DNA of 63,272 nt, filler included, from Folioceros fuciformis (taxonomy: Eukaryota), in the NCBI GenBank assembly GCA_049999805.1. It is 12 parts of 12 records of this genome, joined end to end, with 100 filler letters (N's around TTAATTAATTAA, not from the genome) between each part and the next. Parts side by side here need not be neighbours in the genome. Positions count along the whole stretch, not along the records: positions 11,419 to 25,384 come from JBNGIO010005264.1; positions 25,485 to 31,095 come from JBNGIO010005266.1; positions 31,196 to 33,694 come from JBNGIO010005267.1; positions 33,795 to 38,263 come from JBNGIO010005268.1; positions 38,364 to 42,739 come from JBNGIO010005269.1; positions 42,840 to 46,570 come from JBNGIO010005270.1; positions 46,671 to 50,862 come from JBNGIO010005271.1; positions 50,963 to 52,556 come from JBNGIO010005274.1; 4 more parts are not named here. One strand, 5' to 3'. The notes under the pieces were generated by a model that saw nothing but the letters and a program-made list of their open reading frames with translations, searched no databases and was not told the DNA's origin. The position numbers and the translations under genes were made by a program. Shown piece after piece: positions 20,261 to 62,641 of the stretch (positions within the stretch are counted from its first letter, which is position 1; each line of letters begins with the position of its first letter).

Positions 20261-20580
20261 GTATAAATTAGGATCGAGGTGGAAGCGAGAGCAAGCAAGA
20301 AGATGTAGAATGATAATCTTTACTTTGGCCGTGTGGCCTTAAAAAAAGACTGAACGGTTGTGTCCTGTGAGTGTGAAGGTACAACGATTAGTTTTAGGTC
20401 GCCGACCCTTGTGTATGTCGCTAGGAATCTACCGGTTCCCATCTAAATATGATTTACTATTTATTAATGCTGGATATATATAATTCTACCAATACTCCCA
20501 CTTAGCCAGCATTACCCTAGTTAGGATTGCGAAACCACAGGTTAAGAAACCTCGCCGAAGTTAGGTCTCCAGTTCTCTTC

Positions 20581-21113
20581 ATGCCCGCCGCCGCTGTTCA
20601 CAGTCCATGGATGAGCTCACAGCTGTGATTCTGGTGCTGGCGCTGTTGCTGTGTGCTTGGATTCTTCGATGTCGCCGGCCTTGCGCAGACTGCAGCAATC
20701 TGGAGAAGGCACACTCAAGATGGCGGCTGGCGCATGGTTTTTTACTGCTTGCGCCCAATGCTCCATTCCGATGCCTTACAAACTGCTTCGACAGATTTCA
20801 TGTATGCTGGCTGTGACGTCACAGATGATGGTCGGCAAATTCTCCGCTATGGTTCGCTTCTTCAGACTTGCTCTGTAAGTGACTCCTCCTACTACAGCTT
20901 GTGTAGGATGCTTTCTAACCTCATACCTTTGTGTTACGCAGAGCCTTGGTGGCGCTGCACCACAGAGATGCCATCCAGAAGGTTTCATCCTTCGTGAAGT
21001 ACCACAGGGTTAGAGTCGAGATGCTAGCTAGGTGGAAGGTTCTGGTAACTAGGACTCTGGGTCCTCAGCTAAGCCCATTGCAGCTGCAAATTTTTCGTGT
21101 TTTTCTCTGGTAA
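20581..21113 (+). other. Candidate spliced antisense ORF in the Copia 3' region
   Basis: ATGs at 20581 and 20607, hydrophobic MDELTAVILVLALLLC, and intron-like GTAAGT...CTAAC...TTACGCAG at 20875-20941. Two frames stay open across the splice. Confidence 0.45.
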
Positions 21114-24100
21114 GTGCCTTGGTGAGCAGGTCTGCAATGTTGCTATGAGTGGACACGAACTGTAAGTTTGCACGTCCCTCACTGACCACTTGCCTTATAA
21201 AGTGGTGCTTGATTTCTATGTGTTTTGTTCTGGCGTGCATGACAGGGTTCTGGGCCAAAGCTATGGCTGACTGGTTATCGCTCAGAAGGAGTGTTGGGTC
21301 AGTTTGCTCTTCCCCAAGAGAGGCCAGCAGTTCCCTGCCATGGATAATGCCTTGTGCGGCTGTGGTGGCAGATATGTACTCTGCTTCAGTGGAGGACAGA
21401 GCCACCACAGGTTGCTTCTTACTATGCCATGATATTATTGTTGCCTGTGTCTCATCTTCTCCTAGCATGAGGCAATGTGCAGATATTGACCGACGGCTGT
21501 CTGAATCAGCTGCCCAGTCGGCATCACAATAACAGGTTAGTTGCAGCTTGCTTGGTCTTTGCTTATAGAGTAACCCCATCTTTGGTGTACCACCAAGATA
21601 GCGGATACATCTCTGAACTGCTTGCCAGTGTGCTGGTCCATAGTTGGAAAGGAACAGAGATGTCACACCCACAGCGTGTGAGAGCTCAGGGCGTGTCCAG
21701 TTGCGGAAGTAGATGAGTACTCCCACTGCAGGCCGATATGGTGTCTTTTCCATCTGAATGCGTTCTGATTCATTCTTTGGACATTGCTCTAATGTGAGCT
21801 TCTCACCCACTGCCATTGGTGTTGCAGCAGGTGTAGCATTCTGCATTCTGAATCGTGCAAGGGTCTTATTTGGATGCTTTGGGTCAACGTACCCTTCAGG
21901 CTGACGCATGTATATTGTTTCCTCCCGGTCGCCATTCAAGAAGGCGGTTTTGACGTCCATGTGTTGAAGAAGGTAGTCATGCTGGGCTGCTATCGCCAGC
22001 AAGGTACGGATGGATGTAGCTCTGACTACTGGAGAGAATGTCTCCGAGTAGTCTAGTCCTTCAACTTGGCTGTAACCTCGAGCTACCAGCCGAGCTTTGT
22101 ATCTTGCTATAGATCCATCAGCCGCTTTCTTCAACTTGAATACCCATTTGCATGTTACAGCTTTTCGTCCAGGTGGTAAGTCTTCAAGTATCCATGTTTT
22201 TTTATCCATTATAGACTTGTATTCTGATTCGATTGCTTCATGCCACTTAGCTTTCTCAGGTGAGTTCATTGCCTCCTGGTAGGACTGTGGCTCACCCATG
22301 TCGATTGGCATGTCTTCATGCACTAGAAAGCTTTGGTATGAAAGTGGAGGAGTGGTCCATTCATACGGGGACGCAGTGTGATGTCTGGAACTACGGTGAG
22401 GAGCTTCCTCTGATGCTGGTTCAGGTTCAGATTCAGGTTCTGCGTCTTCCTCTTGTATTGTGGCTTCCGAAGGTGATACACTATTTGTCTCTTCATTTGG
22501 ACTTTCAGTCTCCTCTTCGACTTCATCTTCTGGGAAGTCAGAGGGTTCTGCATCACTCTCACTGTCTGTCTGGGAATCTATAGGAGCCACAGGGTGTACA
22601 ACATGTGAGGAAGTGGTACTATGCGATGTGGTTGTGAACTCTCCATCTTCACTTGTATCCTCAGGTTCGTTAGGCTGGACATCTAACCTGGGCTGGTTTA
22701 CTGAAGGAGTAAGTAGCATTTTTTCATTAAATACTACACTTCGGGCATGGATAGTTGTTCTAGTTTGTGGATCTAGCAGCTTATAGCCTTTTATTCCTTC
22801 AGTATACCCCACAAAGACGTACTTTCTTGCTTTATAATCTAACTTCACTCTTTGTTTCTCTGCAAGGTGAGCATATGCTGGGGAATCGAAGATTCGCAGG
22901 TGATTAATTCGCGGCTTGTGAGTAGTCCATCTCTCAAATGGTGTAGCTCCAGTAAAAGCTTTGGTAGGCAGTCGATTTCTGATATACGCTGCTGTTGCTA
23001 CAGCCTCACCCCAATAACCCCGTGTGAGGCCCGACACTTTAAGCATAGCCTTGGCTGCTGACTGAAGGTGTTTGTTGTTCAGCTCGGCCAAGGGATTCTA
23101 AGAAGAAGTATACGGTACAGTGAGCTGCCTATGTATTCCAAGTTCTTTGCAGTAATCCTGGAATGCGCCTGAAATAAATTCTCCACCATTGTCACTGCGC
23201 AGGGTCTTCAGCTGCTCTCCAGTTTGCCTCTAGGCAAAAGACACATACTCCTTGAAGCAGCTAAGTGTTTGGCTCTTATGCCTGAGAAGGTACACTACTA
23301 CATACCTACTCCAATCGTCAATGAAGGAAAGAATGTATAGTGCACCTCCCAAGGTTGCAGTTGACATGGGACCACATAGGTCAGTATGAACAACTTCAAG
23401 TAGCTTCGTACTCTTGTTGGGTTGTCATCTGTGTATGGACTGCGTTGGTGCTTCCCAAACACGCATGCTTCACAGAACTGCTTCTCTGCAAACTGGAGCA
23501 TGAACTTCTCTCGGTAAAGTGTATTGCTGGCTATCATTGTCTTCATTTTGTCGAAGTTGGCATGGCCCAGCCAACAGTGCCATAGCATAGCTGCATCATT
23601 GTTCTTGGTCTCTTGACTGACGTGGACTTGTGCACGTGTAAGTGGGAGACCATGCTCAGAGTTAATGTTGAGTTGATATAAATCATGGAAAGGTTCTCCT
23701 ATAGCTAACACCTTGTTCTTGTTTGTAGGGTCAATGACTTGACACTTGAGACCCGTGAAGGAGACATTCAGAGTGTGCTGTGTGGTCAGCTTACGAACTG
23801 ACACAAGATTCTTGACCATAGAAGGTACGTGCAACACATCTTCCAACACCAAGGTGGTGTTGTTACTCAACATAACTGGTACTGACCCGGTGCCCTCTAT
23901 GTGCAGGCCACTGTCATCTCCAAGAAGAACAAATTGACCGGGTGGAACAGCCCTATACTCAATAAAGGACTGCTTGCAATGACAGATGTGAGCAGACGCA
24001 CCTGAGTCTATAAACCAGACGTGTTTATTCGACGCAGTTGAGACCATGCATACAGCTAAAATGGTGTTTCCCTTACGCTGTACGACATTTGATGCTGGTG

Positions 24101-25208
24101 ATGGTGCAGTTCGTCTTGGCTCGCCTACCTTCTTTTTACGACAATCAGCTTCCCAATGGCCAGGTATGAGACACCAATTGCAGGGTCCCTTCTTTTTGGC
24201 TGATTGTGCTTGTGGTGGACGCTTTTTATAACCAGTGTTAAGATTTGGAGTCCAGGACTGCCTTGGTGGAAATCTTTTAGGACCCCTGTTTGCATACAGT
24301 GCCCTGGTTGAAGATTCTCCTCGGGAGGTGCCACCTTGGTTCACAGTTCGGGTTGACTCTTCCTCGAGAAGAGCTCCAATTATATCCGCCAATGTAATAT
24401 CAGGTTGCTGGCCTGGCTGAGCATTCTGGGCTGCATGGCGCAAAGCAGAACTCTGGTTGCTTACAAACGTGCGGTAGCTGGGAGGAAGAGAGAGAAGGAG
24501 GGCAATTGCTGCCTGCATCTCCCTGGTCCTCGTCCTACTTGAGGTAAGCTTCAATCGTAACTGTCGAAACTTCACCACATGTTGATCCACTGGTTCATTC
24601 TCACGCATTTTACAAGTATAGAACGCTCTTGTAGCTCCAACCAGCGATGAGCCGTTGCTTACTTGATATGTATGTGTGAGTGAGTCCCAAGCTTCTTTTG
24701 TATTCTCCACATCTTGTGTATGAGACATCATTGATCCATCCAATGCGGACTGGATCACTCCAAGTGCTCTCAGGTCCAGTTTCTCCCAAGCTTCTACTTG
24801 TGTAGCGGTCACAGTGGGTCCAGTTGGTTTAGGTACGGTTCCCGTGACAACTCCCCACAGGCCATTCTCTTTTAGAATTGTCTGGACTCTAAGTGACCAA
24901 ATATCAAACTGGGACCCTGAGAAGCGGTCCTTTTCCTTGAAATCTATCTTCAGGTTGGTAATAACTGGAGTGACCATGTTTACTATGATCTGATTTGCAA
25001 GGGTAGCTGCTACTAACTCAGCTTGCTTCTTACGTGCATCTGCTAGTGCCTTCCTGTGACGTGCTCGCTGAATGCGATCAAGGGCTGGATCTACTCTTGA
25101 AGTGCTACTACCTTGTGAAGATGAAGTAGCAAAGAGAGAGAGTGGATCTGAGAAATCAGGTGAAGGTGAGTTGCCTCTTCTTCTACCGCGACTTTTGCCC
25201 CTTGGCAT
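21049..25208 (-). pseudogene. Copia gag-pol polyprotein (Gag, CCHC, protease, integrase, RT, RNase H) with a frameshift, stops and an RT deletion
   Basis: ORF 23298-25208 has CNWCLIPGHWEADC, WFIDSGASAH and LWHCWLGH. ORF 21049-23091 has RYKARLVARGY, MDVKTAFLNG, YCDADWA and RTKHIEIKHHF. Frameshift near 23400; the YxDD region is absent. Confidence 0.95.
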
Positions 25209-26270
25209 GTACAGTCTTACAAGGCTCCAGCTGGTTCAGGCTCAAGTGATCTTGGTTGCCTGGTACTGCACAAAAGCATGGCCTGAATCATCTTCATAAG
25301 CTGTGTGTCTTGCTCTTGTTCTTGCTGCGAGGTCTGAACAGGTGCGACTGGAATTTGAATCAGTGCGTCCGAGATATGAACCGGNNNNNNNNNNNNNNNN
25401 NNNNNNNNNNNNNNNNNNNNNNNNNNNNTTAATTAATTAANNNNNNNNNNNNNNNNNNNNNNNNNNNNNNNNNNNNNNNNNNNNAAGAACAAGGCAGGCC
25501 TGGCCCTACATCGGCCAAATCCTCCAGCTCGCCTCAACCTCCTCTTGTGCACACATTCAGTCCCATCACCGGCGATCCCTCCTCCTACCTGCAATGTGAA
25601 TCAAAAGAAGCAGGACAAAGAGATGGAGAGGGAAGGGGAAGAAGAAGAAGAGGGGGCAAGAGGAAAAAGAAGGAGGAAGGGACAAAGCGGAAGGGGATGG
25701 GGGCGGCCGCAACCCCTGCCCTAGCTAGGGTACGGCCTCCATGTCCGTTTAGGCCAGCCAAGCAATCAGCCAGCCTCACATCGGACCCTGACCCCCTGAC
25801 ACTGACATACTCAGATTCCCGTTCCTATGTTCAAACCATTGTTTTATTATTTATTATTATTCTATTATTATTTAATCATTTAATACTATATATAATTAAT
25901 ATTAAACCAATCCCCAAACCTAGATTCAAACTTTCCCGACCCTATGGCCCGGTACCGGACCTAAACTTTCCCAGGTCTGGGACCAAACCTATACCCNNNN
26001 NNNNNNNNNNNNNNNNNNNNNNNNNNNNNNNNNNNNNNNNNNNNNNNNNNNNNNNNNNNNNNNNNNNNNNNNNNNNNNNNNNNNNNNNNNNNNNNNAAAA
26101 AGAAAACCAAACCATACCACTATTAACCCTTTTTTAACCAAAACAAACTACTACCCCAAACTTTGGAGGTTCACACAAGGCTAGGGGGATCATAAACCCT
26201 GTTTACATTCACACTGATGAGAATACTATAGATGTCTTGACAAAATCACTTCCAAAACACAAGCACCTTA

Positions 26271-26554
26271 TGATGAAAATCATGCCTTGCTCTTAGATGC
26301 AAAAGATAGAATGCAATAATTAAAGAGTAAAGTACAAGCCTTTATATAGGCTAGGTGGTTGAGGTTGTTAGGTGGTTACAACTATAAGTAGTTGTAACCA
26401 TAAGTAGTTATAACCATAAGTAGTTATAACTAATATAACAACTAACTACCTAGAGCAACTAAATAGGTAACTACCTAATGCCCTAGATGATAATATAATG
26501 TTTAAAGTGATGTGGCCCTAATGAATAGTGCCCTAAACTAGATATATTTCATCA
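26271..26554. mobile_element. Solo LTR with intact TSD
   Basis: Termini TGATGAAA...TTTCATCA; TSD CCTTA at 26266-26270 and 26555-26559; internal 15-bp tandem repeats TAAGTAGTTATAACC. Confidence 0.9.
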
Positions 26555-26784
26555 CCTTACACATATGGATGGCTTGGGCCTAGTAGATTACACTAAATAC
26601 CTTCTTGCTGCTTAGCATTTAACTTACAAAACAAGAGCGAAAACCACTCTAGAGCATCTGTTCTCTACCTAATCAAACCATGACTTGCAGCTGTCAAATG
26701 TCTTACTTTCGGTGGGAGTCTAACAGTCATGCCTTGTCCGTCCTCCTCTTCAATGTTGCGCTTACCTTCTTCATGTCATAGCCT

Positions 26785-27252
26785 CTATCTACGAGCCGCC
26801 CTACCATTTTCCACCACTTCAACCTTGGCTAGGTCACGAGCGCCTTTCTGTTTCCGTGGCATGCATGAGAGTTGAGCCTGTAACATAGCGGCCCTCTCCC
26901 TAGCTACCTCTAGTAGCTGTTCCAGGTCCTCACAGTCCTTCTCAGCGTTCTCAAGATGCCACATCACTTGTCTGTTTGCTGTCGTTGGCCACCATTTCTT
27001 CCTGCTCGACGAGCTTCCCGCTCCAGTTGAAGCAACAGCAAGCATACTGTCCACCTCTGGCACCTTGTCCTCGTGACTGGTCGAACTCCTCTGGCTGGAG
27101 ATCTCGTGAGTGCAACTCCTAACCATGTTTATTAGCACTGAGGCTAAGATGTTTGTGTAGCCAGCTACCGTGAAGACTAGCATCCAACAAAACAGAGTGA
27201 CTACAAAGTCGGTCTCCAGCTGAGCCGCTTCAAGCTGATCTGTTGTCATCAC
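26785..27252 (-). CDS. Antisense ORF (155 aa) in the Copia 3' region; N-terminal hydrophobic helix plus coiled-coil-like segment
   Basis: Open ORF between the pol stop (about 26615) and the PPT. FVVTLFCWMLVFTVAGYTNILASVLINMV is hydrophobic; HLENAEKDCEDLEQLLEVARERAAMLQAQL is heptad-like. Confidence 0.55.
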   Translation of the reverse strand: MMTTDQLEAAQLETDFVVTLFCWMLVFTVAGYTNILASVLINMVRSCTHEISSQRSSTSHEDKVPEVDSMLAVASTGAGSSSSRKKWWPTTANRQVMWHLENAEKDCEDLEQLLEVARERAAMLQAQLSCMPRKQKGARDLAKVEVVENGRAARR

Positions 27253-27459
27253 GTTTTTAGGGCTAGTATAGTTTTTTCATTTTAACCCCTTGTAGTTAAG
27301 TGGGAGTGTTGGATATATAACCAGCAAGGGTTAATATGATGACCTAGTTATTTAGGGTTACGAGACTTTATTTTGTATATTATACTTTTGCCCTTTGTTG
27401 AATATATATTACCTTTGTTTATTCCTCGCTTGCTTAGCTAGAGACAAGAGGTATTTACA

Positions 27460-30400
27460 TAGTGAACAGAGGTGGACTTGACAATAGGAGTGAATGTTTC
27501 GTTATAGTCAAGGCATGGGATTTGGTTATAGCCCTTGGCCACTAGACGGGCCTTGTATCTTCCTACGGACCCGTCAGTATTCAATTTTTTTCTTGAAAAC
27601 CCACTTACATTGAATAGGCTTTCTAGTGGGAGGGAGATCTACCAGCTTCCATGTCTTATTTTGGATGAGGGACGTGTACTCCGAATCTATGGCTGCTTGC
27701 CAAAAGGCAGCCTCAAGGCGTGCTAAGGCTTTTGTATAAGTTAAAGGCTTACCCAGGGACGTTGAAATGCTGAAAACTGTTGCAAGGGAAAATTCAGAAG
27801 TGACTATATGTGCAGAATAGGGAGGATCTTTCCACTCATGCATGGGTCGATGGATGCAGGTTGAACGACGAGGAGGTGGGACTGCCTCGCCTGATTCAAG
27901 CTCTACGATTGGGTGTAGGGACAGGCTCAACTAAAGAAGCGTCTGCATTAGGAATACCTGAGAGTTTGCTTTCATCACAAGGGCCTACTAGAGATGGTGG
28001 AGGCATTGGAAGGTCCATCTTCACCATCATTACAATCAGAAGCTGAAACTGTCTCCGTTGGATCCTGAGAAGGAGAAGCATCCTTGTCGTCAAAGAAACT
28101 GACCTCATCAGTGTCAGCAAGAACTATATCCTCAATGCCATGGATGGAAGAAGAAATAGCAGTAGCATCCGAAAGGAAAGCAGCACGATGATGGCGAAGA
28201 AGGGCAGCCTCGTGGAAAACCACACTCCGTGATAAAGCAAGCTGACGGGTGACAGGGATAAACCACTTGTAGCCCTTCACCTCTTCTAAATAGCTGACAA
28301 AAACGTCCCTGGATGCCTTGGGATCGAGCTTGGAACGCAGTGCTGGAGGGATGAGAGCATAGGCAGGAGCACGGAAAATTCGTAGGTGTCGAACTCGGGG
28401 CTTCTTACCCGTCCATCTTTCAAAAGGGGTCATGGGGCCAAGCTCCTTCATTGGCAGTCAATTCTGTATATAGTTGACGGCCATCAAAGCTTCGGCCCAA
28501 TACCCACGGGTAAGTCCAGCAAAAGAAAGAGAAGCCAAAGTGGCTTCTTGTAAAGTTCTATTTTTGCGTTCTGAAAAAGCATTCTGCTCTAGAGTAGAAG
28601 GAATTGTCAACTGATGAAGAATTCTTTCATGTGCACAGAACGATGCGAATGCATGGCTGGTGTACTCACCGCCGTTGTCTGTTCGCAAAATTCGCACCTT
28701 ACAGATAGTTTGTCGTTGAGCATAGCAAACATAGGACTTGAAACAGTCAAAAGCTTCACTTTTGTGTCGGAGCAAGAAAACTACACAACATCTGCTCCAC
28801 TCGTCGATGAAGGTCAAGAAATAGTCTGCCCTGCCAAAAGAGTTGGTGGACATAGGGCCACATATATCGCTATGCACAGTGTGAAGCAAGCCATCAGCAC
28901 GACTAAGGGCCATATCCTTAAAGGGCAGTGAATATGCCTTACTCAATTGACAGGACTCATAGAAGGTGTTTTTATCGAAAGAGAATTCAAGAGGCTCACG
29001 ATAACTCTCACCTTTGACAAGGGATTTGAGGCATTGGAAGTTGGCATGTCCAACACGATAGTGCCACAATTGTGTGAAGGGTGCCTTTGTGGAATGAACT
29101 GATTGAGTAGAACCTAACACAATCTTGACGTTCAGAAGGTACAGGTCGTGAGAAGGTGAGCCTAAGAAAAGATCATGCCCTAACTTGGAGCTTGTGACAT
29201 AGCATCCTTGCTAATCAAAACACACTCGGCAGTGTTGTTCCTGTGACAACTTTAGGACAGACATCAAGTTCTTAGTCATTGAAAGGACATAGAGAACCTT
29301 TGTGAGTGTAAGTCTAGAAGAGTCAATCAAGGAAATGATGACTGAGCCTGAGCCTTTGATAGAAAGTCCACTATTGTCCCCTAGTAGGACAAATTGTTTG
29401 GCATTAGCAGTAGGAGTGAAAGAAGAAAAAGCACGCTTGTGAAAGCAAATATGACTAGTGGCTCCTGAATCGAGAAACCATGTGCCAGATTGTACTTGTG
29501 TAGACGACAAACAAACTGCCAGGATAGAGGGCTGTTTAAGCTTGCTAATGGTGACGTTGCTCTCTGGAGGATGATCACGCCTAGGCTCTCCTCCTTTCTG
29601 CTTACGACAGTCTCGTTCATAATGGATAGGAATCTTACACCAGTTGCACACAAAAGTCTTCTTGGTGATTATATCACGTTGTAGGAACCACGTCCTCTAC
29701 CTCGACCTTAAAAGCCACCTCGTCCTCTTGATGTAAATAGCACTCTTGTGTTGTTGGAAGTGGAGCCCTTAGACTTGTGAAAACTCCTTGTGCGCTCTTC
29801 AGATATAAGGGCGCCAATTACCTCCTCGAGAGTTACCTTCGGTGGCTGGCCAGTAGTAGCTGCTTAAACAACAGCATGTATCGTGGCATTCTGACTTCGG
29901 ACAAAGTGTTGATAACTTTCTGGAAGTGAAGCCAAGATACTTATAGTTGCTTGAACTTCTATCATCACTGTACCACAATAGGCAAGATTAGCACGAAGAG
30001 TCCTAAACTTGTTGATATAAGCCTCAACAGGCTCATTGTTCCGCATCCTTAAGTTGAAGAAGTCTCCGTGCGCATGCACAAGGGACGCCAAACTCTTGTC
30101 CCAATATATCGACTGGAAAACCTTCCACACATCTGCCGAGGTCTTGGCATCTATGGTGTGTGGCATCACATTTCTATCTAAGAGAGCAATGAGTATAGCG
30201 GGCACGCCTATCCTTACGCTCCCAAGCTAGGATTGCCTTGGCCATTCTAACAGGTGTTGTCACCTTCGGTTCTGTGCCATCTACAATGGACAACAGCTCA
30301 TTCTCCTTGAACATTTGGGTCAGCCTCATGGCACAAATGTTGTAATCTGTACCATTAAACCTATCCTTGTCCCTGAATTCAATTTTCAAAGAAGGAACTA

Positions 30401-30602
30401 TAGGGACAATGGGTGAAACTCCAGACATGATTTCAAGATCAAGAATTCTATCGGGGACTAATTGCCGGTGTCGCTGTCTCTCTAATTCGAGAAGGTTGCG
30501 TGGGGAGAAGTCCCACGTAGTAAGATTGGCAGGTTCAACAAAGAGAGATGAAATGTCCACGACAAATTTATCATCAAAGTCTAAACTATCTGTTATAAAC
30601 AA
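27460..30602 (-). mobile_element. Degenerate Ty1/Copia gag-pol, interrupted in RT
   Basis: KIEFRDKDRFNG gag, CNWCKIPIHYERDC, WFLDSGATSH, HSDICGP, LRTDNGGEY, CKWVFKKK, DYNETFTPIVKSTS. Same family as the elements at 21049-25208 and 46833-50862. Confidence 0.93.
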
Positions 30603-30633
30603 AAGAGAGAACTACAACAGGGTGCAAGGCACC

Positions 30634-31095
30634 TGATGACAAGTTCGAGAAGAGCTAGCGGGCATGAGGTCCATCACACATCGCTCTTCACAAAACAAGT
30701 GGAGGACCTTAATGCTTTCCAACAGCTTCTTCATAAATGCGGTCTGTACCCTTGTCAATAGGATCGACTCCAGTCTACGTGCAAGTGTAGGAGAGGAGAG
30801 GAGAGAAGAGAGGGTGGTATTGGTGATCACAACCATGAAAACAATACACATCACCACTGTCTTATTATGGAGGTCCGAGGTCTCCATTTAAGTAGTACAT
30901 TTAGGGCTACACAACTTCCAGGTTCAATATGGGATAATCTACACTATCCTAAGTTCACTAATAACTAGAACTAGTCTAGTATGAACCCAACTGGGATAAC
31001 TAACACCACATGAGTTTAGCTCATATAGAGCTCGATAACTCAACACTCCCCCTCGAGCTCAACATAGCATCTGTACGCCTAACATAGCTCGGAAT
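30634..31095 (-). mobile_element. Copia 3' LTR, PPT and RNase H end inserted upstream of the preceding gag
   Basis: Minus strand reads FRAMLGVQMLC*, then PPT GAGGGGGAG, then TGTTGAG (LTR from 31045 leftward). Left boundary is approximate. Confidence 0.65.
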
Positions 31096-31195
31096 NNNNN
31101 NNNNNNNNNNNNNNNNNNNNNNNNNNNNNNNNNNNNNNNTTAATTAATTAANNNNNNNNNNNNNNNNNNNNNNNNNNNNNNNNNNNNNNNNNNNN

Positions 31196-38880: not shown

Positions 38881-38889
38881 AAGGAACCA

Positions 38890-42739: not shown

Positions 42740-42839
42740 NNNNNNNNNNNNNNNNNNNNNNNNNNNNNNNNNNNNNNNNNNNNTTAATTAATTAANNNNN
42801 NNNNNNNNNNNNNNNNNNNNNNNNNNNNNNNNNNNNNNN

Positions 42840-43743
42840 CATGCAAACTGGTGAGAGATTACGTTCCTCTATGTCTCCAAGCACTCCTGCAGAAATAGAA
42901 GAAATGAAGGATATACCCTATAAAGGTGTTGTGGGCAGTATGCAACACTTGGATTAGAATACACGACTTGATGTTGCCTGTGCTTGTAATCACAGTGCTC
43001 AATTTCAAACTTCACCTAGGAAACCGCATTGGGTGGCTGTGAAACGAATTCTTCGATATCTTCAGAAGACAAAAACTACATGTATCACCAGAAGACAAAA
43101 ACTACATGTATCACTTATACTGGTGGTGAGGGTGCCCAACACAAGCTTCTAGGATGGACAGACTCAGATTGGGCCGGTGATCCGGACACCCGAAAGTCCA
43201 CATCAGGCTATGTTTTCACTCTCGATGGAGGTGCTATGAGTTGGAAGTATAAAAAGCAAGCTTGTGTTGCTCAAAGCTCAGCAGAATCTGAGTATATTGC
43301 TGCAGCTGTTGCCGCCAAGGAAGCCGTTTGGCTTGTTCAACTTCTACAAGATCTCGGGTATCTCATTCCGGTCCTGTTGAAATTAAGTGTGACAATCAAG
43401 CTGCTATCTCTCTTTCTCGAGATCAGTGATTTCACGATCGCTCTAAGCACATCCAATTGTGGTATCATTACTTACGAGAGAAGGTGGAATCTCAAGAGCT
43501 AAAATCCGACGTCAGATCAAGCGGCAGATATCCTTACCAAACCCGTGTCGTGCCCTGTACTCGAGCACTGCTGTGCAATACTGGGCTTATCCTCTATATC
43601 TTGAGTGCGCTCACCCTCTTAGGATTACGGGGGTGTGTAGATAGTGTCAGTTAGTTCTAACCCTAGTTGCTTAATCCTAGTTAGGGTTCACGAACTGTTG
43701 CGTGCTCCTTGAGCGTTAAGAACCTTTCTGCTGCTCTAAAACA
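42840..43743 (+). mobile_element. Ty1/Copia RT and RNase H end, PPT and short LTR
   Basis: HWVAVKRILRYL, GWTDSDWAGD, SSAESEY. A 25-bp duplication at 43063-43112 causes a frameshift. PPT GATTACGGGGG ends at 43633. Confidence 0.88.
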
Positions 43744-46570: not shown

Positions 46571-46832
46571 NNNNNNNNNNNNNNNNNNNNNNNNNNNNNN
46601 NNNNNNNNNNNNNNTTAATTAATTAANNNNNNNNNNNNNNNNNNNNNNNNNNNNNNNNNNNNNNNNNNNNTTGCTCCTATTCCTGCCATGGTACCAACTA
46701 CACTCGACTATCTCAGAATTCAGTTGAACTGCATCGAGTCGCAGCTCGAGGCCCTACACATCGCGATTAGCCGCATGCCTGCCCACAGGCAATCATGAGT
46801 CAGGCAAGCCCTTTCTTGATCCTCAACATTCT

Positions 46833-49800: not shown

Positions 49801-50862
49801 CATAAGCAATAAGACCTGGAAATTGGTGAGTTTACCAGAGGGAAGAAAACCGATTTCATGCAAATGGACTTTCAGAAGTAAGCTGAACCCCGATGGAACA
49901 GTAGCAAGGCATAAGGCGAGATTGGTGGCACGTGGTTTCACTCAAGTCCCCGGATTCGACTACGAAGAAAACAGGCTTTTTAGTCCAGTGGTGAAGTCAA
50001 CCTCAATCAGAATCCTTCTAGCTTTCGCTGCACATCATCATCTGCAAATACACCAAGTCGACGTCAAAACCGCCTTTTTATATGGTACTCTGAGCGAAGA
50101 CATATATGTGATGCAACCACCTGGGTTCGTGAAGGACCCACTCAAGGTATGCAAACTGCTCAAGTCAATCTACGGACTCAAGCAATCCGCTCAGGTATGG
50201 AATGAGACTGTCGACCTGTACCTGAAGAAGTGTGGTTTCTCGCCACTCACTTCCGATCCCAGCGTGTATGTGCTCAAGGAAACTGGTAGGTTAGTCGTCA
50301 TTACCTTGTACGTGGACGACAACTTCATCTTTGGTGATAGCTTAGCATCTGTACAATATGCGAAGGATCTGCTGTCAAAGGAGTACGACGTTGTTGACAT
50401 GGGCCCCTTGCGCTATGCTTTGGGTGTTCAGTTTGAAAGTAACCCTGCAGATAGCTCCTTCTTCATACATCAGCAACACTACGTCGATCAGTTACTTGAG
50501 AGATTCAAGCTCAAGGACGTTAAACCGGTATCTACACCCATAGCCACAGGAGAGAAAATATCGGCGGAAGACTGCCCGAGCACACCTGAGGAGACTAGAG
50601 AAATGCAACAAGTACCCTACAGCGAGGCAGTCGGAAGTTTACTCTACCTGTCCATATGGATGAGGCCAGACATATCTCAGGCAGTGAACATAGCCTCGAG
50701 ATACCTGTCTAACCCAGGAAGAGCACACTGGACCTACGTAAAACGAATCTTCCGATACCTGAAGGGAACCAAATCCCTCGGCTTGCTATACAGAGGTATT
50801 TCCATCAGGCTGACACTCAAATCTTACTCTGACGCGGACTGGGCAGGTGATCCGGACGCCAG
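46833..50862 (+). mobile_element. Near-intact Ty1/Copia gag-pol (one visible in-frame TAG; truncated by linker)
   Basis: KVEFRDRDRFTG, CNWCKILGHHEHEC, WFLDSGATTH, TAG at 48051-48053, LWHCRAGH, DNGGEY, RHKARLVARGF, LYVDDNFIFG, YSDADWAGD. Gap at 49016-49115. Confidence 0.95.
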
Positions 50863-50962
50863 NNNNNNNNNNNNNNNNNNNNNNNNNNNNNNNNNNNNNN
50901 NNNNNNTTAATTAATTAANNNNNNNNNNNNNNNNNNNNNNNNNNNNNNNNNNNNNNNNNNNN

Positions 50963-52556: not shown

Positions 52557-52656
52557 NNNNNNNNNNNNNNNNNNNNNNNNNNNNNNNNNNNNNNNNNNNN
52601 TTAATTAATTAANNNNNNNNNNNNNNNNNNNNNNNNNNNNNNNNNNNNNNNNNNNN

Positions 52657-54044
52657 CAAAGAACTTTATTGGATTTGAGGCCCAAGACTTGGTGAATATT
52701 ATGTTGGAGTTGGAGTTATGTTATGAAGCANNNNNNNNNNNNNNNNNNNNNNNNNNNNNNNNNNNNNNNNNNNNNNNNNNNNNNNNNNNNNNNNNNNNNN
52801 NNNNNNNNNNNNNNNNNNNNNNNNNNNNNNATCGATCAAAGGCCAGATTTGAACATGGACAGATCTCTAAAATGGCTCACTGAAAAAACGAGCAAGGATC
52901 CGCCATATAACTTTTTAGGACGGAGATTACTATGTGAAGATAATCGTACCTTTTTAACTGAAGGTTTTTTCCCAAGGTTTCAGGTATGTATCCAAACTTT
53001 GTTTCACCAATCTGGGTTTGAGATGAGATAAATAACATCATGAGACTTTGTTTCACCAATTTGGGTTTGAGATGAGATAAATAACATCATGAGAAAAAGC
53101 ACATTATCCACTAACTCTTTTCACTCTTCAAATTGAAGGTGGTGTTGCGTAATAATCTTTTCTCCAAAACGCATTTGGGAATGAAAAGTGATGACTACAA
53201 ATTTGGGTACAACCTTATTTCAGTAGACTATAATGGGATGGATGTTCTTATAGAATACAGCGGAGGAGACACAACCATCTACTATGTTGACATCTTGATG
53301 AGGTCAAGACAGCCTCCTAGGATTGCTCATACATTTATGAGAGAGCATATTTTGCAAGACTTGAGAGAGTTTTGTGCTTCATCAAGAGGTTGTCCTGGGG
53401 TCTCTCTAGGAGAAGGATTCATCAATCCATACTGTGTAGAGCATTTGATCCCTTGCAAGTTGAGGCAAAACCAAGCCAAACATGAGTCAGAATTGACAAA
53501 GTTTCTTCTGGACGAAGAACAAGGTTGGGAGTGCAGCCAAGGGTATTTTGGTTATCGTGATCCTATATTGGATTTCAGACATAGTTGGCCTACTATAGGG
53601 GTGGATAATGGCATCAAGGTCTCCCATAAACTGGAGGAGTTTGTGGATACAGATTACTTGGATGACATAGTGCAAAGGAATAAAGAGTTTCATCAACGGC
53701 AGAAAGATTGCATTGAGAAAGCCTTAACAGAGCTTGGACTGAACACAAGTTCAGAACCTTCGGCCAACCCCATTCCTGCCCCTGCACGGTGTCGATCTGA
53801 TCTCTCCCTGGACAAAAGGAGCACTGAAACGTATGCGTTCCGCAAGCAGGTGATCGAGAAACTGGAGAAGCTGGAACGTAATGATAAGGAGATCCTTGAT
53901 GCGATTAGGTCACTGGAAGCAGAGGTTGTGAGATCCAAACAGGAGACACTACGGACTTTGAACAGTAAGATGGATGATATTCTAGGGTACCATGGTTCCA
54001 CCACGCCCCGTCGCCCGTTTTTGTCTGTTGATGGTGTTTCCTTG
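52657..54044 (+). CDS. TORNADO1-like (LRR-ROC-COR) protein, internal partial
   Basis: MLELELCYE, GRRLLCED..FLTEGFFPRFQ|V, YVDILMRS, LREFCASSRGCPGVSL, CVEHLIPC, HSWP, then a coiled-coil-like segment. GT-AG intron at 52984-53138 contains a roughly 48-bp tandem duplication. Confidence 0.8.
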
Positions 54045-54144
54045 NNNNNNNNNNNNNNNNNNNNNNNNNNNNNNNNNNNNNNNNNNNNTTAATTAATTAA
54101 NNNNNNNNNNNNNNNNNNNNNNNNNNNNNNNNNNNNNNNNNNNN

Positions 54145-54470
54145 GCCTCAGTCAACCACCCAGCAATCTCTCTCTGACCTAAGCCGGCCCTAATTCTGAC
54201 CTAAACCTAACTCTGACCTAACCCTAACTTTGACCCAAACCTAGTTTTGACCTGAAAGGGGTTGTGTCCCATGGACACCACTAGGTGCCCTTACCAAAAT
54301 TGACCAACCTCTCAAGACTACCAAAATGGTCAGTGCCTCTAAACACTCTCCCTCCTCTTTCAAATCATTCCATCCCTTCTCTCAGATCATTCCAGCAACC
54401 CTTCAAAGACACATCTCACCTCCCCATTAATCTAGCTACTAATCTTTCCTAATCTTTTAACTATTTCACC
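54145..54470. repeat. Repeat; inverted copy at about 56902-57228
   Basis: 54145-54390 is the reverse complement of about 56982-57228 (identical by eye). The next roughly 80 bp are similar but diverged. Confidence 0.9.
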
Positions 54471-54570
54471 NNNNNNNNNNNNNNNNNNNNNNNNNNNNNN
54501 NNNNNNNNNNNNNNNNNNNNNNNNNNNNNNNNNNNNNNNNNNNNNNNNNNNNNNNNNNNNNNNNNNNNNN

Positions 54571-55387
54571 CACTTATCTACGTGCCCACAGATGCAAATT
54601 ATGCAGACCTGCTTACAAAACCATTAAGCCGAGAACGGCATGAGTCTCATGTCCAGAGCCTAGGGATGATAGACAGCACACCGCTCCTGGCACATGCTCT
54701 GAAGCCAAGTTAGGTCAGTCTGTGTCATACTCTGATTCTGACCAATTCATGTAGGTGCTAGGTCTAGAGTCGGGTTTCCACAGAGAGCATTCACACCCAG
54801 AGTCGCTGTCAGAAGTCATGTAGGTGCATTCCCGCAAGTACCCTGCCATCTGGAAGACCTGCAATTCCATAACTGCAAATTACAAGCACTTTGTATCAAG
54901 CCACAGAAGCGGATCTTGCTAACATTCCAGACAATGGAGAAAGGAGAACCACTCACAGTAACGTGAACGAGCTCACCTTCAGCATCAGCTTAGAAGTGTC
55001 CCAGTCTCGATACTGGTCTGGAGGGCCAACGGCAGTCGGCTTCCGGCCACCACAGAAAACACGAGAGCAACATCGCGAGAAAGCCGTCGTAGGCAGTAAT
55101 CAAAGTCGGCACGAAATTAGGTTAGAAAACATGCGTCTAAGAGGGAGTGTCAAGGGCCTAAGTGTTTGGGCCTTAGGCATTAAGTAGCCGCATATCATAA
55201 CCTAAATCTAATCGCCACCAGGACCAGCCGCTGCTGGGTATGACGGTTGAGTCAAGGGACACGTCCCTAGACCTGGACGTGTCCGCTGACCCTTATGTAT
55301 CACGCTGCTCGCGTGAGCTAATCTAATCTTGTCTTTCTGCTAGCATGCATATGATCTCTAGTTTTTTGCCTATCTCCTATGTTGCCA
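54571..55387 (+). mobile_element. Ty1/Copia 3' end (RNase H C-terminus, 3' region, PPT, 3' LTR)
   Basis: YVPTDANYADLLTKPLSRERH...LGM, stop at 54711-54713. PPT AAGAGGGAG ends at 55147; LTR starts TGTCAA at 55148; right end approximate. Confidence 0.8.
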
Positions 55388-56823
55388 TAATGCGATACCT
55401 TCATCTTATGTACCCATTTGCATGGCAATGCCTTCTTGCCCCTAGGCAAGCGAACCAACTTCTAAGTTTGGTTCTTATGAAGCGAATCCATCTGCGACTG
55501 CATCACCTTTTCCCACTTGTCCTTGTCAGTCACTAACATGGACTCTTGATAACAAGAGGGCTCCCCACAATCCGTCAGCATGACATAATCAGGAGGACGT
55601 GAGATCCTTCTTGACCTACGAAGCACTAGCGCCTCGCCCGGAGCTGGTTGCACTCTCTCCTCTTCTACAAGTGGAGAAACTTGTTCTTGCACATCACAAC
55701 ATTCAACTTGCGCGGGAGAGTCAAATCCATCTTCTTGAAAGACCACCCGTCGCACCTCCACAGTTGGAGTAGGATTCTTGTGCATCTTGGTCTCATTGAA
55801 GAACACTTCATTGCTGCGAACCATCCTCTTGGTCTCTGGATCCTGCAGACGGTATCCCATCTCACCAGATTCACCATAGCCAAGAAAAATACATTTGCTT
55901 GACTTAGGAGCCAACTTGTCCCGAAACTCCTTCGGAACATGGTATTATGCCTCGCAGCCAAACACTCGTAGATGCGTGTAAGACGGCTTCTTCCCATACA
56001 ACATCTCCTCTAGAACCTACTCATCCACAGCCCTACTAGGAGATTTGTTAATAAGATGCACCGCAGTAACTACCGCTTCTGCCCAAAATCCGTTAAGCAA
56101 TCCAGAGTTTGACAACAAATTACGCATCCCTTCCTAGATGGTTCTGTTCATCCATTCAACCACACCATTTTGGGGAGGAGTATACGGCGCAGTCAATTCT
56201 CTCTTGATTCCCTTGGAATCATAGAATGATTGGAAAGCCTTTGAAACATACTCTCCCCCATTATCTATCCTTAGACACTTCAGTTGGAGGCCAAACTGAT
56301 TCTCCACAAGGGTGTCGAATTTCTGAAACACTATCAGAACATCATCCTTTTTCCTCAAAGGATAAACCCACACCTTGCGTGAGAAATCATCTATGAAAGT
56401 GACAAAATAGGATGCACCACCTAACGATATAGTGGGCATAGGTCCACAAACGTCACTGTGAACCAATTCAAGAGGTTTACTTTTGTGTTTACCTCTTGCT
56501 CCATGTGGTGACTTCGTCTATTTCCCATACAAACAATGCTCACACGCGGAGAAATTGGAGAAGGGTTTTAGGACGTAACCAAAACGAGATAGGATCTTCA
56601 TTCCTTTTTGAGACATATGTCCTAACCGACTATGCCACTAGGAAACACTTAGCTGTTCCGTTACACAAATTACATGATCCTGGACAGTGGTTACATGAAG
56701 TGAGTACAAAGAGCCACACTTCGATCCATGAGCTAACACAAGAGAACCTTTGGAGATCTTCCAAGAACTATCTGCAAACCAACAGTGGTAGCCAGCATCA
56801 TCCAACTGCCCTGTGCTAATCAT
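55388..56823 (-). mobile_element. Degenerate Ty1/Copia integrase and RT start
   Basis: ISTGQLD, VHSDVCGP, FIDDFSRK, DNGGEY, KCIFLGY, LPCKWV. Confidence 0.92.
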
Positions 56824-57599
56824 GCTGTGGACTCCACATGCTGAATAGGTCCTTGGAAAATGGTAGGATTTCTCTTTTTGGGAATCTCTAAGTGCACCCT
56901 GTGGTGAAATGGTTAAAAGATTAGGTTAGATTAGTAGCTAGATTAATGGTGAGGCGAGACGCATCTTTGATCGGTTGCTGAAATGATCTGAGAGAAGGGA
57001 TGGAATGATTTGAAAGAGGAGGGAGAGTGTTTAGAGGCACTGACCATTTTGGTAGTCTTGAGAGGTTGGTCAATTTTGGTAAGGGCACCTAGTGGTGTCC
57101 ATGGGACACAACCCCTTTCAGGTCAAAACTAGGTTTGGGTCAAAGTTAGGGTTAGGTCAGAGTTAGGTTTAGGTCAGAATTAGGGCCGGCTTAGGTCAGA
57201 GAGAGATTGCTGGGTGGTTGACTGAGGCTAACCCTAATAGATAGAGATGGAGGTTTGGGCCAAGGTAGTATAAGAGGCTAGACCTGCCATTGAGGAGGGG
57301 GCTGTCTACGGTGCGATTTCCCTGGACCTTGGGTGCAGAACTCCTGGCTTAGCGCGCTGAGCTAGTTGAGACTAAACCAAGGTCTTGATTTCCCTTGCCA
57401 CTAGGGGAACGTGGAGGATCCCAAGACTGCCAAGATTCGTGTGGCCGGATCCGCAATGGCTGACCACCTTGCATGCTGGCTGAGGTGAGGTTGCAAGGCC
57501 GTGAGCCAAGGAGGCTACCCAGCCCTAGGCCTCGCCTCTGCCTTGAAGGGAAGGCTGCAAGAGGGAAGGCTGTTGTGTTCCAAATTGCAGGAGAGAAGG

Positions 57600-57800
57600 G
57601 TTGAGTTGCAGATTTTGGAAGTGGAAGTGTTGAAGTGAGGAGTTGAGCTGAAGTGAGGGGCTGGAGGGTAAAGTGAAGTGCTAAAGTGAAGAACTAAAGT
57701 GCTGAAGTGAAGGACTAAATGCTGGGGTGAAGTGCTGAAGTGGTGGAATGAAGTGTTGAAGCTGGAGTGAGGAGCTAGCTGAAGTTGAGGTTCTCGTTTA
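57600..57800. repeat. Degenerate short tandem repeat (GCTGAAGTG-like)
   Basis: Many imperfect TGAAGTG / CTGAAGTGA units. Confidence 0.6.
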
Positions 57801-59269
57801 GCTGCGGAGGTAGCTAGCACTAGGTGCTGAGAGTTGGAGGCCAGACTTGGGGCTGGAGCCTCCTCTCAGCACTGAAGTGATTGATACTTGGAGCTAGAAA
57901 TGAAGGCTGAAGACAATGCTGGAGTTCTCATTTTGTTAAGGCTGGGGTTGGTGTTGTGGTAGGAGCCGAAGACAGGACCGAGACTTCTGACCTATTGCTG
58001 TAGCNNNNNNNNNNNNNNNNNNNNNNNNNNNNNNNNNNNNNNNNNNNNTTAATTAATTAANNNNNNNNNNNNNNNNNNNNNNNNNNNNNNNNNNNNNNNN
58101 NNNNGTTCCGGCTGCTGATCCCACTCCTTCCCACCTCTTCTCTATCTTTCCCATTGCGCATGCTCCTCCCCTAGAGGCTGGCTCAGCCACCAAGGGTGAA
58201 CAGTTGCAGGGGAAGACTAGCGGGCGACCATCCAGCAAGGAAGAGGCGGCGTCCGCAGATCTTTGAAGATCAGACATCCTCCGAAGTCTGTGGATAGTCT
58301 AAGAGGTGGTAGATCCTTGTGGTGGTAGGGCCAGAAGCTCATTGGTGGCAGGTTGTGCTAGAAGTCTAAATAAGTGGCTGGTNNNNNNNNNNNNNNNNNN
58401 NNNNNNNNNNNNNNNNNNNNNNNNNNNNNNNNNNNNNNNNNNNNNNNNNNNNNNNNNNNNNNNNNNNNNNNNNNNNNNNNNNGGAGTCATTCACTTTTGG
58501 GAGTCAGTCTATCTCTTTGTGAGCTCTTGTGGTCTGTCCCTGCTTGGTTTAGGACCTGCAGTGTGTTGCCGGCTGTGCACCGTCAGGTAGGATCGCGGGC
58601 AGCGTGTCGCCGGTTGTATAGTGTCTGGTAGGATCACAAGGTGTAATGACCAGGGTGTGGGGGCTTGCCCCTAGCTCTTGATTGTAAAGGGTGTGTCTTT
58701 CTCTCAACCTGTCCACTCTTGTTCCTTGCTTGGTCAAGTGCTGTAGGCCGGCCATGTCTCATGGCGTCTGGTAAGGTTGTGGGGAGGAGATACCCAAGAG
58801 GGGAGTGTGTTCCCTTCTTCCTTTTGTTTGGGGTTAGTCTAGTGACTCTTGCCGGGTAGGAGGAGTCCGTAGGGAAGTGTAGAAGGTAGTGGTGTCGTTG
58901 CTGGTTGCTGGTAGTTGTTGGTGTTGGTGCTGGAGTAAGAGAGTGAGTGAAGTGAGTGAGGGAAGTCGCAGATCTGAGAGGTTAGGGTCGTGGTAGTGAC
59001 AAGAGTGAGTTTGTGGGCACCGAGAGAGGTGCAGCTGACCGCCGGACAGCGAGGCCTGTCCTACGCCTGATCAGAGCTGGAGGGGAGCCCTCGAATCCAT
59101 CATCGAGTTGATCAAGTCCGACCCTCCATCCACAGCAGCAAGGAACCCCATCGCTCCTTCGTGGGAACGAAACCCAATGTCTCAACGACAGTGGGATAAG
59201 TGTGGCCACTAAAGGTGGAATCCGTCGGCAATCAGTGCCCGGGGTTTTGCCTCCACAAGGAGTTTGTCA

Positions 59270-60751
59270 GCTTACTATTTTATCCTCTCTCATGAAGCCG
59301 TTAGTTGGAGCTATAAGAAACAGGCTTCCTTGGCACTTTCTTCCACAGAGGCGGAGTACAAGCTATTGACTGATGCTTGAAAAGAAGCTGAGTGGCAGCG
59401 TCAGTTCTTGGAATATGTTAAACAAGCCCAACTAGGACCAACAAAGTTAATGCGCAACAATATGAGTGCCATTGCACTTGTCTCTAACCCTAGATTCCAT
59501 GCCCGCACAAAACACATCAAGCTGTATCACCACTATATCAGGGATGTGGCTGAGAGAGGTGCAATCAAAGTGAAGTATGTGAGCACACATGATAACACTA
59601 CAGACATTTTTACAAAAGGGCTGACCAAGAGCAAACACTTTCAGCATCTGGCAGCCTTGGGTCTGAGTGAGTTTGCATATCCACATCAGCCATAGTGGCA
59701 ATTGTTTGTGCAAGGAAAAACACGTGTCACCAGTCTGTCTTGTCCATGTGCCTATTTCCTACACACACATTTAGGTGAAACCTGTGTGTGTTTCTCTATC
59801 GTCAGAAGGTCACTTGCTTAGGGCACAACCTTACTTTCTTCTTGCACAGTACACAGATTGTCATTGTCAGCCCTCAACTGTTTGGTTCAGTGGACGAAGC
59901 CTAAGCTTACCCATTTAGTCGAGAACAAACAGTTGTTAGTCATGAGGGCTATACCTTCCCAAGGAGCCTTCCACACAAAACGCATATCTTGCTCTGATTA
60001 GCGCAAGCACAATAATCACGCTTACCATGAGCTCTATCTCTAGTGGGAGATTTGGGATCTGCAGCTTGGTTCCTCATGGCAACCTTTTCTCTGCTAAAGT
60101 TGTCCAGATGCATATCCACCTCTGCCCTCTTTGTAGTGAGGAGTTCCTCCACTTCCTTCAGTGTCTCAGTCAGCGCTCTTGATTGATCCATTAGTCTGTT
60201 CACTGTGGCTCTTGTCGTAACCTGTGGAGTATTATCAGCTTATCTGTCTCTACAGTAGTGTTGAGCGCAGCCTGAATGGTGGTAATGCTGGGAGCAAATG
60301 AAGACTCTGAGGATATCAAATCAATCACATGGTTCCATGGCAGACGAGCTAGTTGAGCTGGCGTCGACTCTCGCACTGCAATTGGGAGGATTTCTTCCTG
60401 AAGATGAGCTGCCTGGTTTGCTTGTCGTGTTGGATTCCGTCCGCGTCGGGAAGCTCCACCACCATCGCCGCTGATACTTGCGCGCTTCATTTTCAAGACT
60501 TGGAGCTGAGAGCAAAGTCTCTAGTCCCGTCTTTCGAGACTGAGGTGTTAGGCTTCCATTAAATCATGTTAGGTTTAGTGGGAGTGTTGGGGTGTAGAAA
60601 CCCTAACATGATTAAATATGCAGTTTAGGGTTAGGTTAACTAACCAACCGACACCTTACAATTTTGCTACTTAAACTCTTATTTCTTAATTAAATGTTGT
60701 CTTTGTAAAATATGCTTCCGCAAGTTTTTCATTACTTTAGGCCATAGAGAC
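59270..60751 (+). mobile_element. Ty1/Copia 3' end (RNase H, 3' region, PPT, 3' LTR)
   Basis: ALSSTEAEY, FHARTKHIKLYHHYIR, DIFTKGL, stop at 59695. PPT TTTAGTGGGAG ends at 60584; LTR starts TGTTGG at 60585; right end approximate. Confidence 0.85.
59949..60559 (-). pseudogene. Degenerate antisense ORF (about 200 aa) in the Copia 3' region; coiled-coil-like segment plus Cys-rich tail
   Basis: ATG at 60559 is in frame with ORF 60200-60496 through two stops. One frameshift joins ORF 59949-60203 (RALTETLKEVEELLTTKRAEVD...YCACANQSKICVLCG). Confidence 0.5.
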
Positions 60752-62640: not shown

Positions 62641-62641
62641 C

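Follow-up and report, generated by a model that had tools for sequence, protein, structure and literature searches.

Antisense open reading frames (ORFs) between pol and the 3′ long terminal repeat (LTR) have been described for the Ty3/gypsy elements Grande, RIRE2 and Retand (Vicient and Casacuberta 2020, PMC7264820; Vicient 2025, PMC11963269), and pvRetro13 of common bean is also a Ty3/gypsy element (Gao et al. 2014, PMC4093653). The present analysis deals with a stretch of 63,272 bases of joined DNA from Folioceros fuciformis, referred to as the window, in which four different Ty1/copia 3′ ends (designated A, B, C and D) carry a long spacer between the pol stop codon and the polypurine tract (PPT) next to the 3′ LTR. 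The original prediction was that these spacers may hold antisense accessory genes driven from the 3′ LTR in a group of Copia elements. Antisense frames beyond chance were found in B and D, but those of A and C are within chance. The reading that we favour, with a probability of roughly 0.4, is that the spacers are a fast-changing untranslated region of one Copia sublineage, containing incidental or relic frames, with no shared antisense gene shown.

The Ty3/gypsy cases, i.e. gene23 of Grande, RIRE2, TRP28 of Retand and the ORF2 families of common bean, resemble the spacers studied here in their position between pol and the PPT or 3′ LTR and in their antisense orientation, and their function is unknown there too (PMC7264820, PMC11963269, PMC4093653). 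In those elements, however, pol and the LTR lie 2.9–6.6 kb apart and the ORFs are mostly longer than 200 amino acids (aa), whereas the elements in the window belong to Ty1/copia, with spacers of 0.4–1.0 kb and frames of 70–190 codons. The Ty3/gypsy ORFs are also conserved within and between species and many contain Transposase_28 or SMC domains, whereas no domain was found here with Pfam.

Within Ty1/copia, the env-like ORF of SIRE/Maximus (eORF-3′F) likewise provides coding capacity after pol and yields heterogeneous products, for which transmembrane and coiled-coil segments have been reported (PMC6317226, PMC4093653). It differs in its sense orientation and its length of 250 codons or more, and the elements that carry it measure about 10 kb and have long LTRs, whereas the frames described here are antisense and short, beside candidate LTRs of 147–198 bp. 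No SIRE-type sense ORF of at least 250 codons follows pol in the spacers of A–D, where the longest sense frames have 72–88 codons. In the available parts of the survey by Neumann et al. (2019, PMC6317226), extra ORFs were counted only from at least 250 codons and the sense ORF of SIRE is the sole such trait of a Copia lineage; because of this threshold, small frames like those of B and D would have been missed. Of the 65 Copia families studied in common bean, 63 have a retrotransposase ORF only and the other two a sense env-like ORF (Gao et al. 2014, PMC4093653). The accessible literature yielded no account of small antisense ORFs next to a Copia PPT; the supplementary tables of Neumann et al. 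may list reverse-strand ORFs of Copia elements.

The likeness to HBZ of human T-cell leukaemia virus type 1, which is named as a comparison in PMC7264820, is one of layout only, namely an antisense frame near the 3′ LTR. HBZ is a retroviral bZIP protein whose antisense promoter has been mapped and whose mRNA is spliced, whereas neither bZIP nor any other family was found with Pfam in the predicted products considered here. Non-coding antisense transcription of the Copia type is represented by Ty1 antisense RNAs and by the antisense promoters of AtRE1 and Mdoryco1-1 (PMC7264820); none of these is described as an ORF next to the PPT. Copia antisense transcription without a protein would explain a role of the spacer. 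Self-encoded antisense factors controlling the copy number of transposons are mentioned as well, without a Copia element being named (PMC11624286).

Four Copia 3′ ends with a long spacer

The four ends have pol stop codons TAG, which are followed by spacers of 545 bp (A), about 1001 bp (B), 425 bp (C) and 880 bp (D) up to the PPT. That four long-spacer Copia 3′ ends exist was borne out, and the spacer coordinates originally given are right for A, C and D. The pol stop of B had been placed at about 26615 and has to be corrected, since the tail frame ends at 26293 and the stop is located at 26294–26296, about 320 bp further left.

Element A is encoded on the minus strand and has two long pol frames of 645 and 682 aa. 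Its Pfam matches appear in the order Retrotran_gag_2, Pol_BBD, gag_pre-integrs, SH3_retrovirus and RVT_2, followed by an RNase H-like tail, which is the Ty1/copia order of gag, protease, integrase, reverse transcriptase (RT) and RNase H. The 3′ pol ORF (21049–23097, stop 21049–21051; integrase SH3-like, RT and RNase H) shows an in-frame deletion of the C-terminal half of the RT, and the RVT_2 match covers profile positions 2–113 of 244 only. Past the deletion a normal RNase H follows, and pol ends with ...LTKALTREKHEKFAAAMGLAEDPES. The spacer extends from 21048 to 20504 and the PPT core AAGTGGGAG occupies 20495–20503. From its start at 20494, the LTR extends leftwards to a candidate end near 20304.

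Of the pol domains, the contigs of B, C and D carry the RNase H tail only. The tails of C (54573–54674) and D (59252–59671) were placed by tblastn with pol of A and a complete RT from the window (49118–50860), while that of B was placed by tblastx (26183–26266). All three elements are on the plus strand. The pol C-terminus of B (26138–26296) shows decay in the form of a stop located 52 codons from its end and an internal gap relative to A. Its spacer (26297–27297) contains a tandem repeat of 3.5 copies of 16 bp (26375–26430) and is followed by the PPT (27298–27306) and a candidate LTR (27307–27468, TGTTGG...GTGAACA). In C, the pol C-terminus (54573–54713, stop 54711–54713) is followed by the spacer (54714–55138), the PPT (55139–55147) and a candidate LTR (55148 to about 55345). 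D retains the C-terminal 145 aa of RNase H with one internal stop (59252–59695, stop 59693–59695), followed by the spacer (59696–60575), the PPT (60576–60584) and a candidate LTR (60585–60731). With lengths of 162 bp (B), 198 bp (C) and 147 bp (D), these candidate LTRs are short, and each ends with CA. At the junctions, AAGTGGGAG precedes TATTGG in A and TGTTGG in B, TAGTGGGAG precedes TGTTGG in D and AAGAGGGAG precedes TGTCAA in C. The junctions agree with the arrangement characteristic of Ty1/copia, namely a PPT directly before a TG-type LTR start.

The other Copia 3′ ends in the window have spacers of 4–31 bp. Almost no spacer had been predicted for them, which holds for the ends at 16881 (4 nt) and 32619 (31 nt). 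It also holds for the end at 43600, though pol is degenerate there. At 31046 the contig ends 41 nt past the PPT, which leaves this end out of the comparison.

In an alignment of six pol tails, the C-terminal pattern TKxLxxx[KR]H was present in all four spacer-bearing ends and in neither of the two readable short-spacer ends, which have [KQ]F at that position. A, B and D have the PPT core AGTGGGAG in common (AAGTGGGAG in A and B, TAGTGGGAG in D), followed by T[GA]TTGG. These likenesses weakly support the assignment of the four spacer-bearing ends to one Copia sublineage; the aligned tails are too short for a tree. The proposed Copia group is thus retained as an apparent sublineage with a common pol end and, in A, B and D, a common PPT core, but not as a group with antisense frames beyond chance in every member, since only B and D have such frames.

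Antisense frames and the untranslated-region reading

According to the reading that we favour, the four different and mostly defective 3′ ends would apparently come from one Ty1/copia sublineage in which pol, with its stop TAG, and the PPT are parted by a stretch of 0.4–1.0 kb private to each family. This stretch would be the untranslated 3′ part of the genomic RNA of the element and would be copied along with it. Being free of the constraint acting on pol, it would drift rapidly and gain and lose sequence. The antisense frames of A and C would be what composition alone yields, and those of B and D, which are longer than chance and mildly coding-like, may be orphan frames private to their families, either new or relics. 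In function the stretch would be non-coding, and the U3 edge of the 3′ LTR is where any antisense RNA would be expected to begin. That the 3′ LTR drives antisense transcription at all is purely inferred.

For each spacer, the longest stop-free run was compared with 1000 dinucleotide-preserving shuffles, and with 500 shuffles when one frame change was allowed. The antisense frame of A comprises 122 codons (p 0.053), or 143 codons with one frame change (p 0.14). The corresponding values for C are 57 codons (p 0.57) and 99 codons (p 0.27). The longest sense frames of the spacers range in p from 0.24 to 0.67. It had been claimed that each spacer reads as an antisense ORF; this is upheld for B and D, but A and C do not exceed chance. 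As a control, 24 stretches of 900 bp without homology to proteins of transposable elements (TEs) were taken from the window. Three of them reached p≤0.01 for ORF length and eight reached p≤0.05, so a long frame is not rare in the unannotated parts of the window. Some of the control stretches with long frames may contain unrecognised coding sequence.

Codon usage was assessed with a likelihood test of the codon frame. Its training set consisted of 14 recognised TE frames from the window, and among held-out pieces of 100 codons it ranked the true frame first in 38 of 41. Relative to 774 shuffle frames, the 122-codon frame of A lacks coding-like codon use (p 0.84) and the frame of B is ordinary (p 0.26). 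Three-base periodicity, assessed against 934 null frames, was not significant for A (p 0.14), for the last 90 codons of B (p 0.15) or for D1, the first of two frames of D (p 0.10).

The antisense frames of A (20607–20875, plus strand) consist of an ATG frame at 20607–20813, encoding 69 aa with a strongly hydrophobic N-terminus (hydropathy 2.54), and a second frame that is open to 20875. An intron-like signal follows at 20875–20941 (plus strand, 67 nt), in which GTAAGT is succeeded by CTAAC, a run rich in pyrimidines and a final CAG. Of 1000 shuffles, 1.6% contain a signal of this kind with a strict donor and 10% with a relaxed donor. It is not significant when counted as one match among four spacers, and the same rules yielded no such signal in the spacers of B, C or D. 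The two frames of D overlap by 37 nt, and hence fit a frame change rather than an intron. Of the two antisense GT-AG introns originally reported, one thus remains as a non-significant signal and the second was not found. Unspliced and read as one, the two frames of A amount to about 90 codons, close to the mean longest frame of 80 in the shuffles.

Element A was also compared with Logan contigs, and two runs of one sample, which may be the source of the assembly, carry a stretch of A. A contig with a depth of 51 covers 20496–21688 in one piece, with eight differing letters and one gap in 1193 bases, and a contig of run X1 breaks at 20496. A flanking contig (19000–19836) is identical to the window at a depth of 13.6. 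Based on these depths and the differing letters, spacer A belongs to a family of a few near-identical copies, and the variant present in the window is in the minority among them. The single gap is a one-letter length change at 20737, in a run of T where the antisense frames of A overlap, and the window differs there from the commoner form. In run X2, a contig (depth 24) joins 20513 to 20936, with a shorter side of 21 letters and unknown letters between. This joint is a weak hint that a related copy lacks or replaces the stretch holding the frame of A. A joint at 21862/21871 in another contig, at the position of the RT deletion, suggests that other copies have more sequence at this site. The possible RNA run X4 yielded five short pieces, less than 95% alike and confined to conserved parts of pol, which are uninformative on expression. 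Run X3 (DNA, same sample, 19000–25384) shows 363 C>T and 120 G>A changes versus a few dozen others; it looks chemically converted (bisulfite-like), so these differences are not regarded as copy variation.

The lack of relatives applies to all products. No likeness among the antisense products of A–D was detected (blastp, best E 0.36), and their predicted mutual dissimilarity is thereby confirmed. When the products were searched against the window by tblastn, the best E value was 0.03 and no likeness to TE proteins emerged, and comparison of the spacers with each other by blastn and tblastx gave matches of 12–20 nt only. Relatives of B, D1 and the second frame of D (D2) were absent from a word-indexed protein library. 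A HMMER pass of B over 1.84 billion representatives returned a single match, P0002 (E 9e-4), which was judged spurious, as it is a tandem-repeat protein. For B, D1, D2 and the 122-codon frame of A, Pfam searches at E≤1 gave a best E of 0.04, with no match to Transposase_28 (PF04195), SMC-like or bZIP families. The ESM Atlas contained no usable match for B, while the best score for D2 was 0.78. Among viral and metagenome contigs no relatives of B were found, and none of the pol of A among viral contigs.

Several observations on B and D weigh against an untranslated region with incidental frames. The antisense ORF of B (26785–27249, minus strand; 154 aa from the ATG at 27249) is 163 codons long from stop to stop, a length matched or exceeded in 0 of 1000 shuffles. 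With one frame change it reaches 182 codons (0 of 500 shuffles). This frame is unbroken beside a decayed pol tail. In D, two abutting antisense frames were found on the minus strand, D1 (60200–60490, 96 aa from the ATG at 60490; 106 codons stop to stop) and D2 (59949–60239, 96 codons, helix- and coiled-coil-like). The longest single frame alone is not significant (106 codons, p 0.069). The span with one frame change has 189 codons (p 0.01), and the frames abut as expected of a frameshifted frame. The excess in ORF length is confined to the antisense strand. In the codon-frame test, D1 (p 0.013) and D2 (p 0.021) resemble TE coding sequence, and three-base periodicity is significant for D2 (p 0.01) and for the first 90 codons of B (p 0.03). 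A TATA-like run is located at the very start of the LTR in A and B. Measured from the LTR edge, the ATG codon lies at 57 nt in B, 94 nt in D and 112 nt in A; a start within about 15–110 bp of the 3′ LTR had been stated. A 5-codon upstream ORF of B starts at 27280. Taken together, the frames of B and D are probably coding sequence of some kind, now or once, and those of A and C are not. We regard the former as candidate orphan genes.

Other readings of the spacers

Several of the observations just listed also form the basis of a second reading, in which, at least in the families of B and D, the region from pol to the PPT harbours a real accessory gene in antisense orientation. This gene would encode a small membrane-anchored and/or coiled-coil protein and would be transcribed from an antisense promoter at the U3 edge of the 3′ LTR. 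Its fast evolution would account for the lack of likeness across families, a situation that has been reported for extra ORFs of SIRE and Ty3/gypsy elements. Frame length in B and in the span of D, the codon-frame and periodicity values, the strand-specific excess and ATG codons at 57–94 nt from the LTR edge are in line with such a gene. For B, a long N-terminal helix with a hydrophobic stretch (hydropathy 1.74 over 19 residues) is predicted, followed by a disordered Ser-rich linker and two long helices. The hydrophobic and/or coiled-coil-like character ascribed to the products agrees with hydrophobic segments in A1 (the ATG frame of A) and B and with predicted long helices in B. In addition, the extra ORFs of a single lineage fall into many mutually dissimilar groups in the available parts of Neumann et al. 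(2019, PMC6317226). However, relatives of B, D1 and D2 were not found in the searches described above, the codon-frame value of B and the periodicity of its last 90 codons are unremarkable, and the single-sequence AlphaFold model of B consists of helices only, at a mean pLDDT (predicted local distance difference test) of 60.7. Moreover, no significant frame is present in A, which is the youngest and most intact copy, or in C, and 3 of the 24 unannotated control stretches also reach p≤0.01 for frame length. We therefore regard a real antisense gene in B and D as possible but doubtful.

A broader proposal goes further and is unlikely. A Ty1/copia sublineage, recognisable by TKxLxxx[KR]H and a PPT of the form (A/T)AG(T/A)GGGAG, would carry small, very fast-evolving antisense genes beside the 3′ LTR, transcribed from the U3 edge, whose products would be membrane-anchored or coiled-coil proteins. 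Pseudoviridae would thereby gain their first described antisense accessory genes, similar in layout to HBZ and to the antisense ORFs of Retand and Grande. If the frames of B and D are real genes, Copia joins the retroelements with antisense accessory genes, and TE annotation must include small ORFs. If they are not, the spacers are an ordinary variable 3′ untranslated region, and frames of 100 codons arise easily at a GC content of 45–52%.

A third reading explains the spacers as one-off acquisitions of mobile-element or host pieces, with the frames of B and D as relics of foreign coding sequence that are antisense by accident. Such an origin would fit spacers without shared sequence in elements that sit in insertion nests. 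It would also fit the composite structure of the B spacer, in which an AT-rich part (26297 to about 26650) with the 16-bp repeat and a TATA-like motif precedes the ORF part. The spacer of D contains a second PPT-like 16-mer, TAGTGGGAGATTTGGG, at 60041–60056 inside antisense frame 2, which is 88% like the true PPT/LTR junction of D at 60576–60591. The spacer of A is flanked by an imperfect direct repeat of 14 nt (20534–20547 and 21001–21014), and the related contig of run X2 joins across most of this spacer. On the other hand, none of the sub-blocks is bordered by terminal repeats or target duplications, and no match to TE proteins of the window, to Pfam or to large libraries was obtained, which would be unusual for captured host genes. 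A spacer is present in all four apparent members of the sublineage, a pattern more readily explained by inheritance than by four accidents. Separate acquisitions are thus rather improbable.

Finally, an assembly artefact, i.e. chimeric contigs with "spacers" that are joins of unrelated pieces, is very improbable: the contigs are short-read-like, with lengths of 0.3–10 kb, and joined by 100 N and linkers, one scaffold (54145–58004) opens with an inverted copy of its own sequence, and inverted RT of another Copia follows the LTR in B, C and D, but each of the four spacers is contained in a single contig, where it is flanked by a pol tail and, at its other end, by a canonical PPT with an LTR start, and Logan contigs of two runs, albeit from one sample that may be the source of the assembly itself, span the pol tail and the whole spacer of A in one piece (20496–21688).

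Surroundings of the spacers and make-up of the window

The window contains 36 runs of N in two patterns. Gaps of 100 N are located within scaffolds, while linkers of 44 N, TTAATTAATTAA and 44 N separate scaffolds. At least 12 short scaffolds are joined end to end, with contigs of 0.07–10.5 kb, and most scaffolds start with a small leading contig (0.07–0.6 kb) followed by a gap. Since the window is made of joined scaffolds, elements from separate scaffolds are not real neighbours. All four features are contained in single contigs (A 14929–25384, B 26097–31095, C 54571–58004, D 58483–63272). In a comparison of the window with itself, no second copy of the elements A–D or their LTRs was found. 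Rfam and tRNA scans of the window gave no matches. The short first contig (54145–54470) of scaffold 54145–58004 is an inverted copy, 96.6% identical, of 56903–57228 in the same scaffold, in the integrase region of a minus-strand Copia. It is either a second copy of that Copia family or a scaffolding artefact.

The candidate LTRs of B, C and D abut the RT of different, decayed Copia elements on the opposite strand, at 27465–27469, about 55345–55357 and about 60731–60735, respectively, where the inverted RT begins at 55357 in C and at about 60735 in D. Next to B, this is a decayed Copia extending from gag to the RT N-terminus (27465–30485, minus strand), whose RT breaks off where the LTR of B ends. 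In the numbering of the complete RT (49118–50860), the host RTs break off at about 297 (B), 268 (C) and 356 (D), i.e. within a stretch of 88 residues and all before YVDD at 398. The in-frame RT deletion of A itself, near 21862, begins in the same stretch. This clustering may be due to chance, insertion preference or rearrangement. A fold-back or autointegration origin of the junctions between LTR and inverted RT in B, C and D was considered as well, but guest and host have no domain in common on which they could be compared.

Past the LTR of A, a minus-strand PPT followed by an LTR start was found at 19907–19915 (AAGTGGGGG followed by TATTAATGG), with about 390 bp from there rightward to the candidate LTR end of A. 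This junction suggests that A is nested within another Copia, in the region after its pol. The stretch in between (19916–20303) was considered as a fifth spacer and discarded, since the frames there do not exceed chance (antisense p 0.115, sense p 0.05). In B, 26300–26627 was considered as a minus-strand solo LTR, based on a TG...CA pair and a TATA-like box, and was rejected due to a mismatch of the flanking 5 nt. Beside the tandem repeat of B, within 26340–26430, the minus strand carries the motif CCTATATAAAGGC, which is oriented into pol and separated from the pol stop by about 50 nt.

Long frames without a recognised family were observed at 53115–54092 (plus strand) as well as in 5401–6300 and 11419–12318, where control stretches reached p≤0.01. 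The frame at 53115–54092 encodes 325 aa, with a best Pfam E value of 0.003, below the cut-off.

Short inverted repeats of differing sequence bracket the PPT/LTR junctions at 20465–20514, 27284–27335, 60558–60617, 16850–16880 and 31035–31065. Their arms measure 12–19 nt in A, B and D and 7–8 nt in the two short-spacer elements. Compared with shuffles, the folding energy of the junctions is clear in one of nine cases (z −5.45) and modest in three more (z −1.8 to −2.5). In the strongest fold, that of D, the minimum-energy structure does not use the bracketing repeat.

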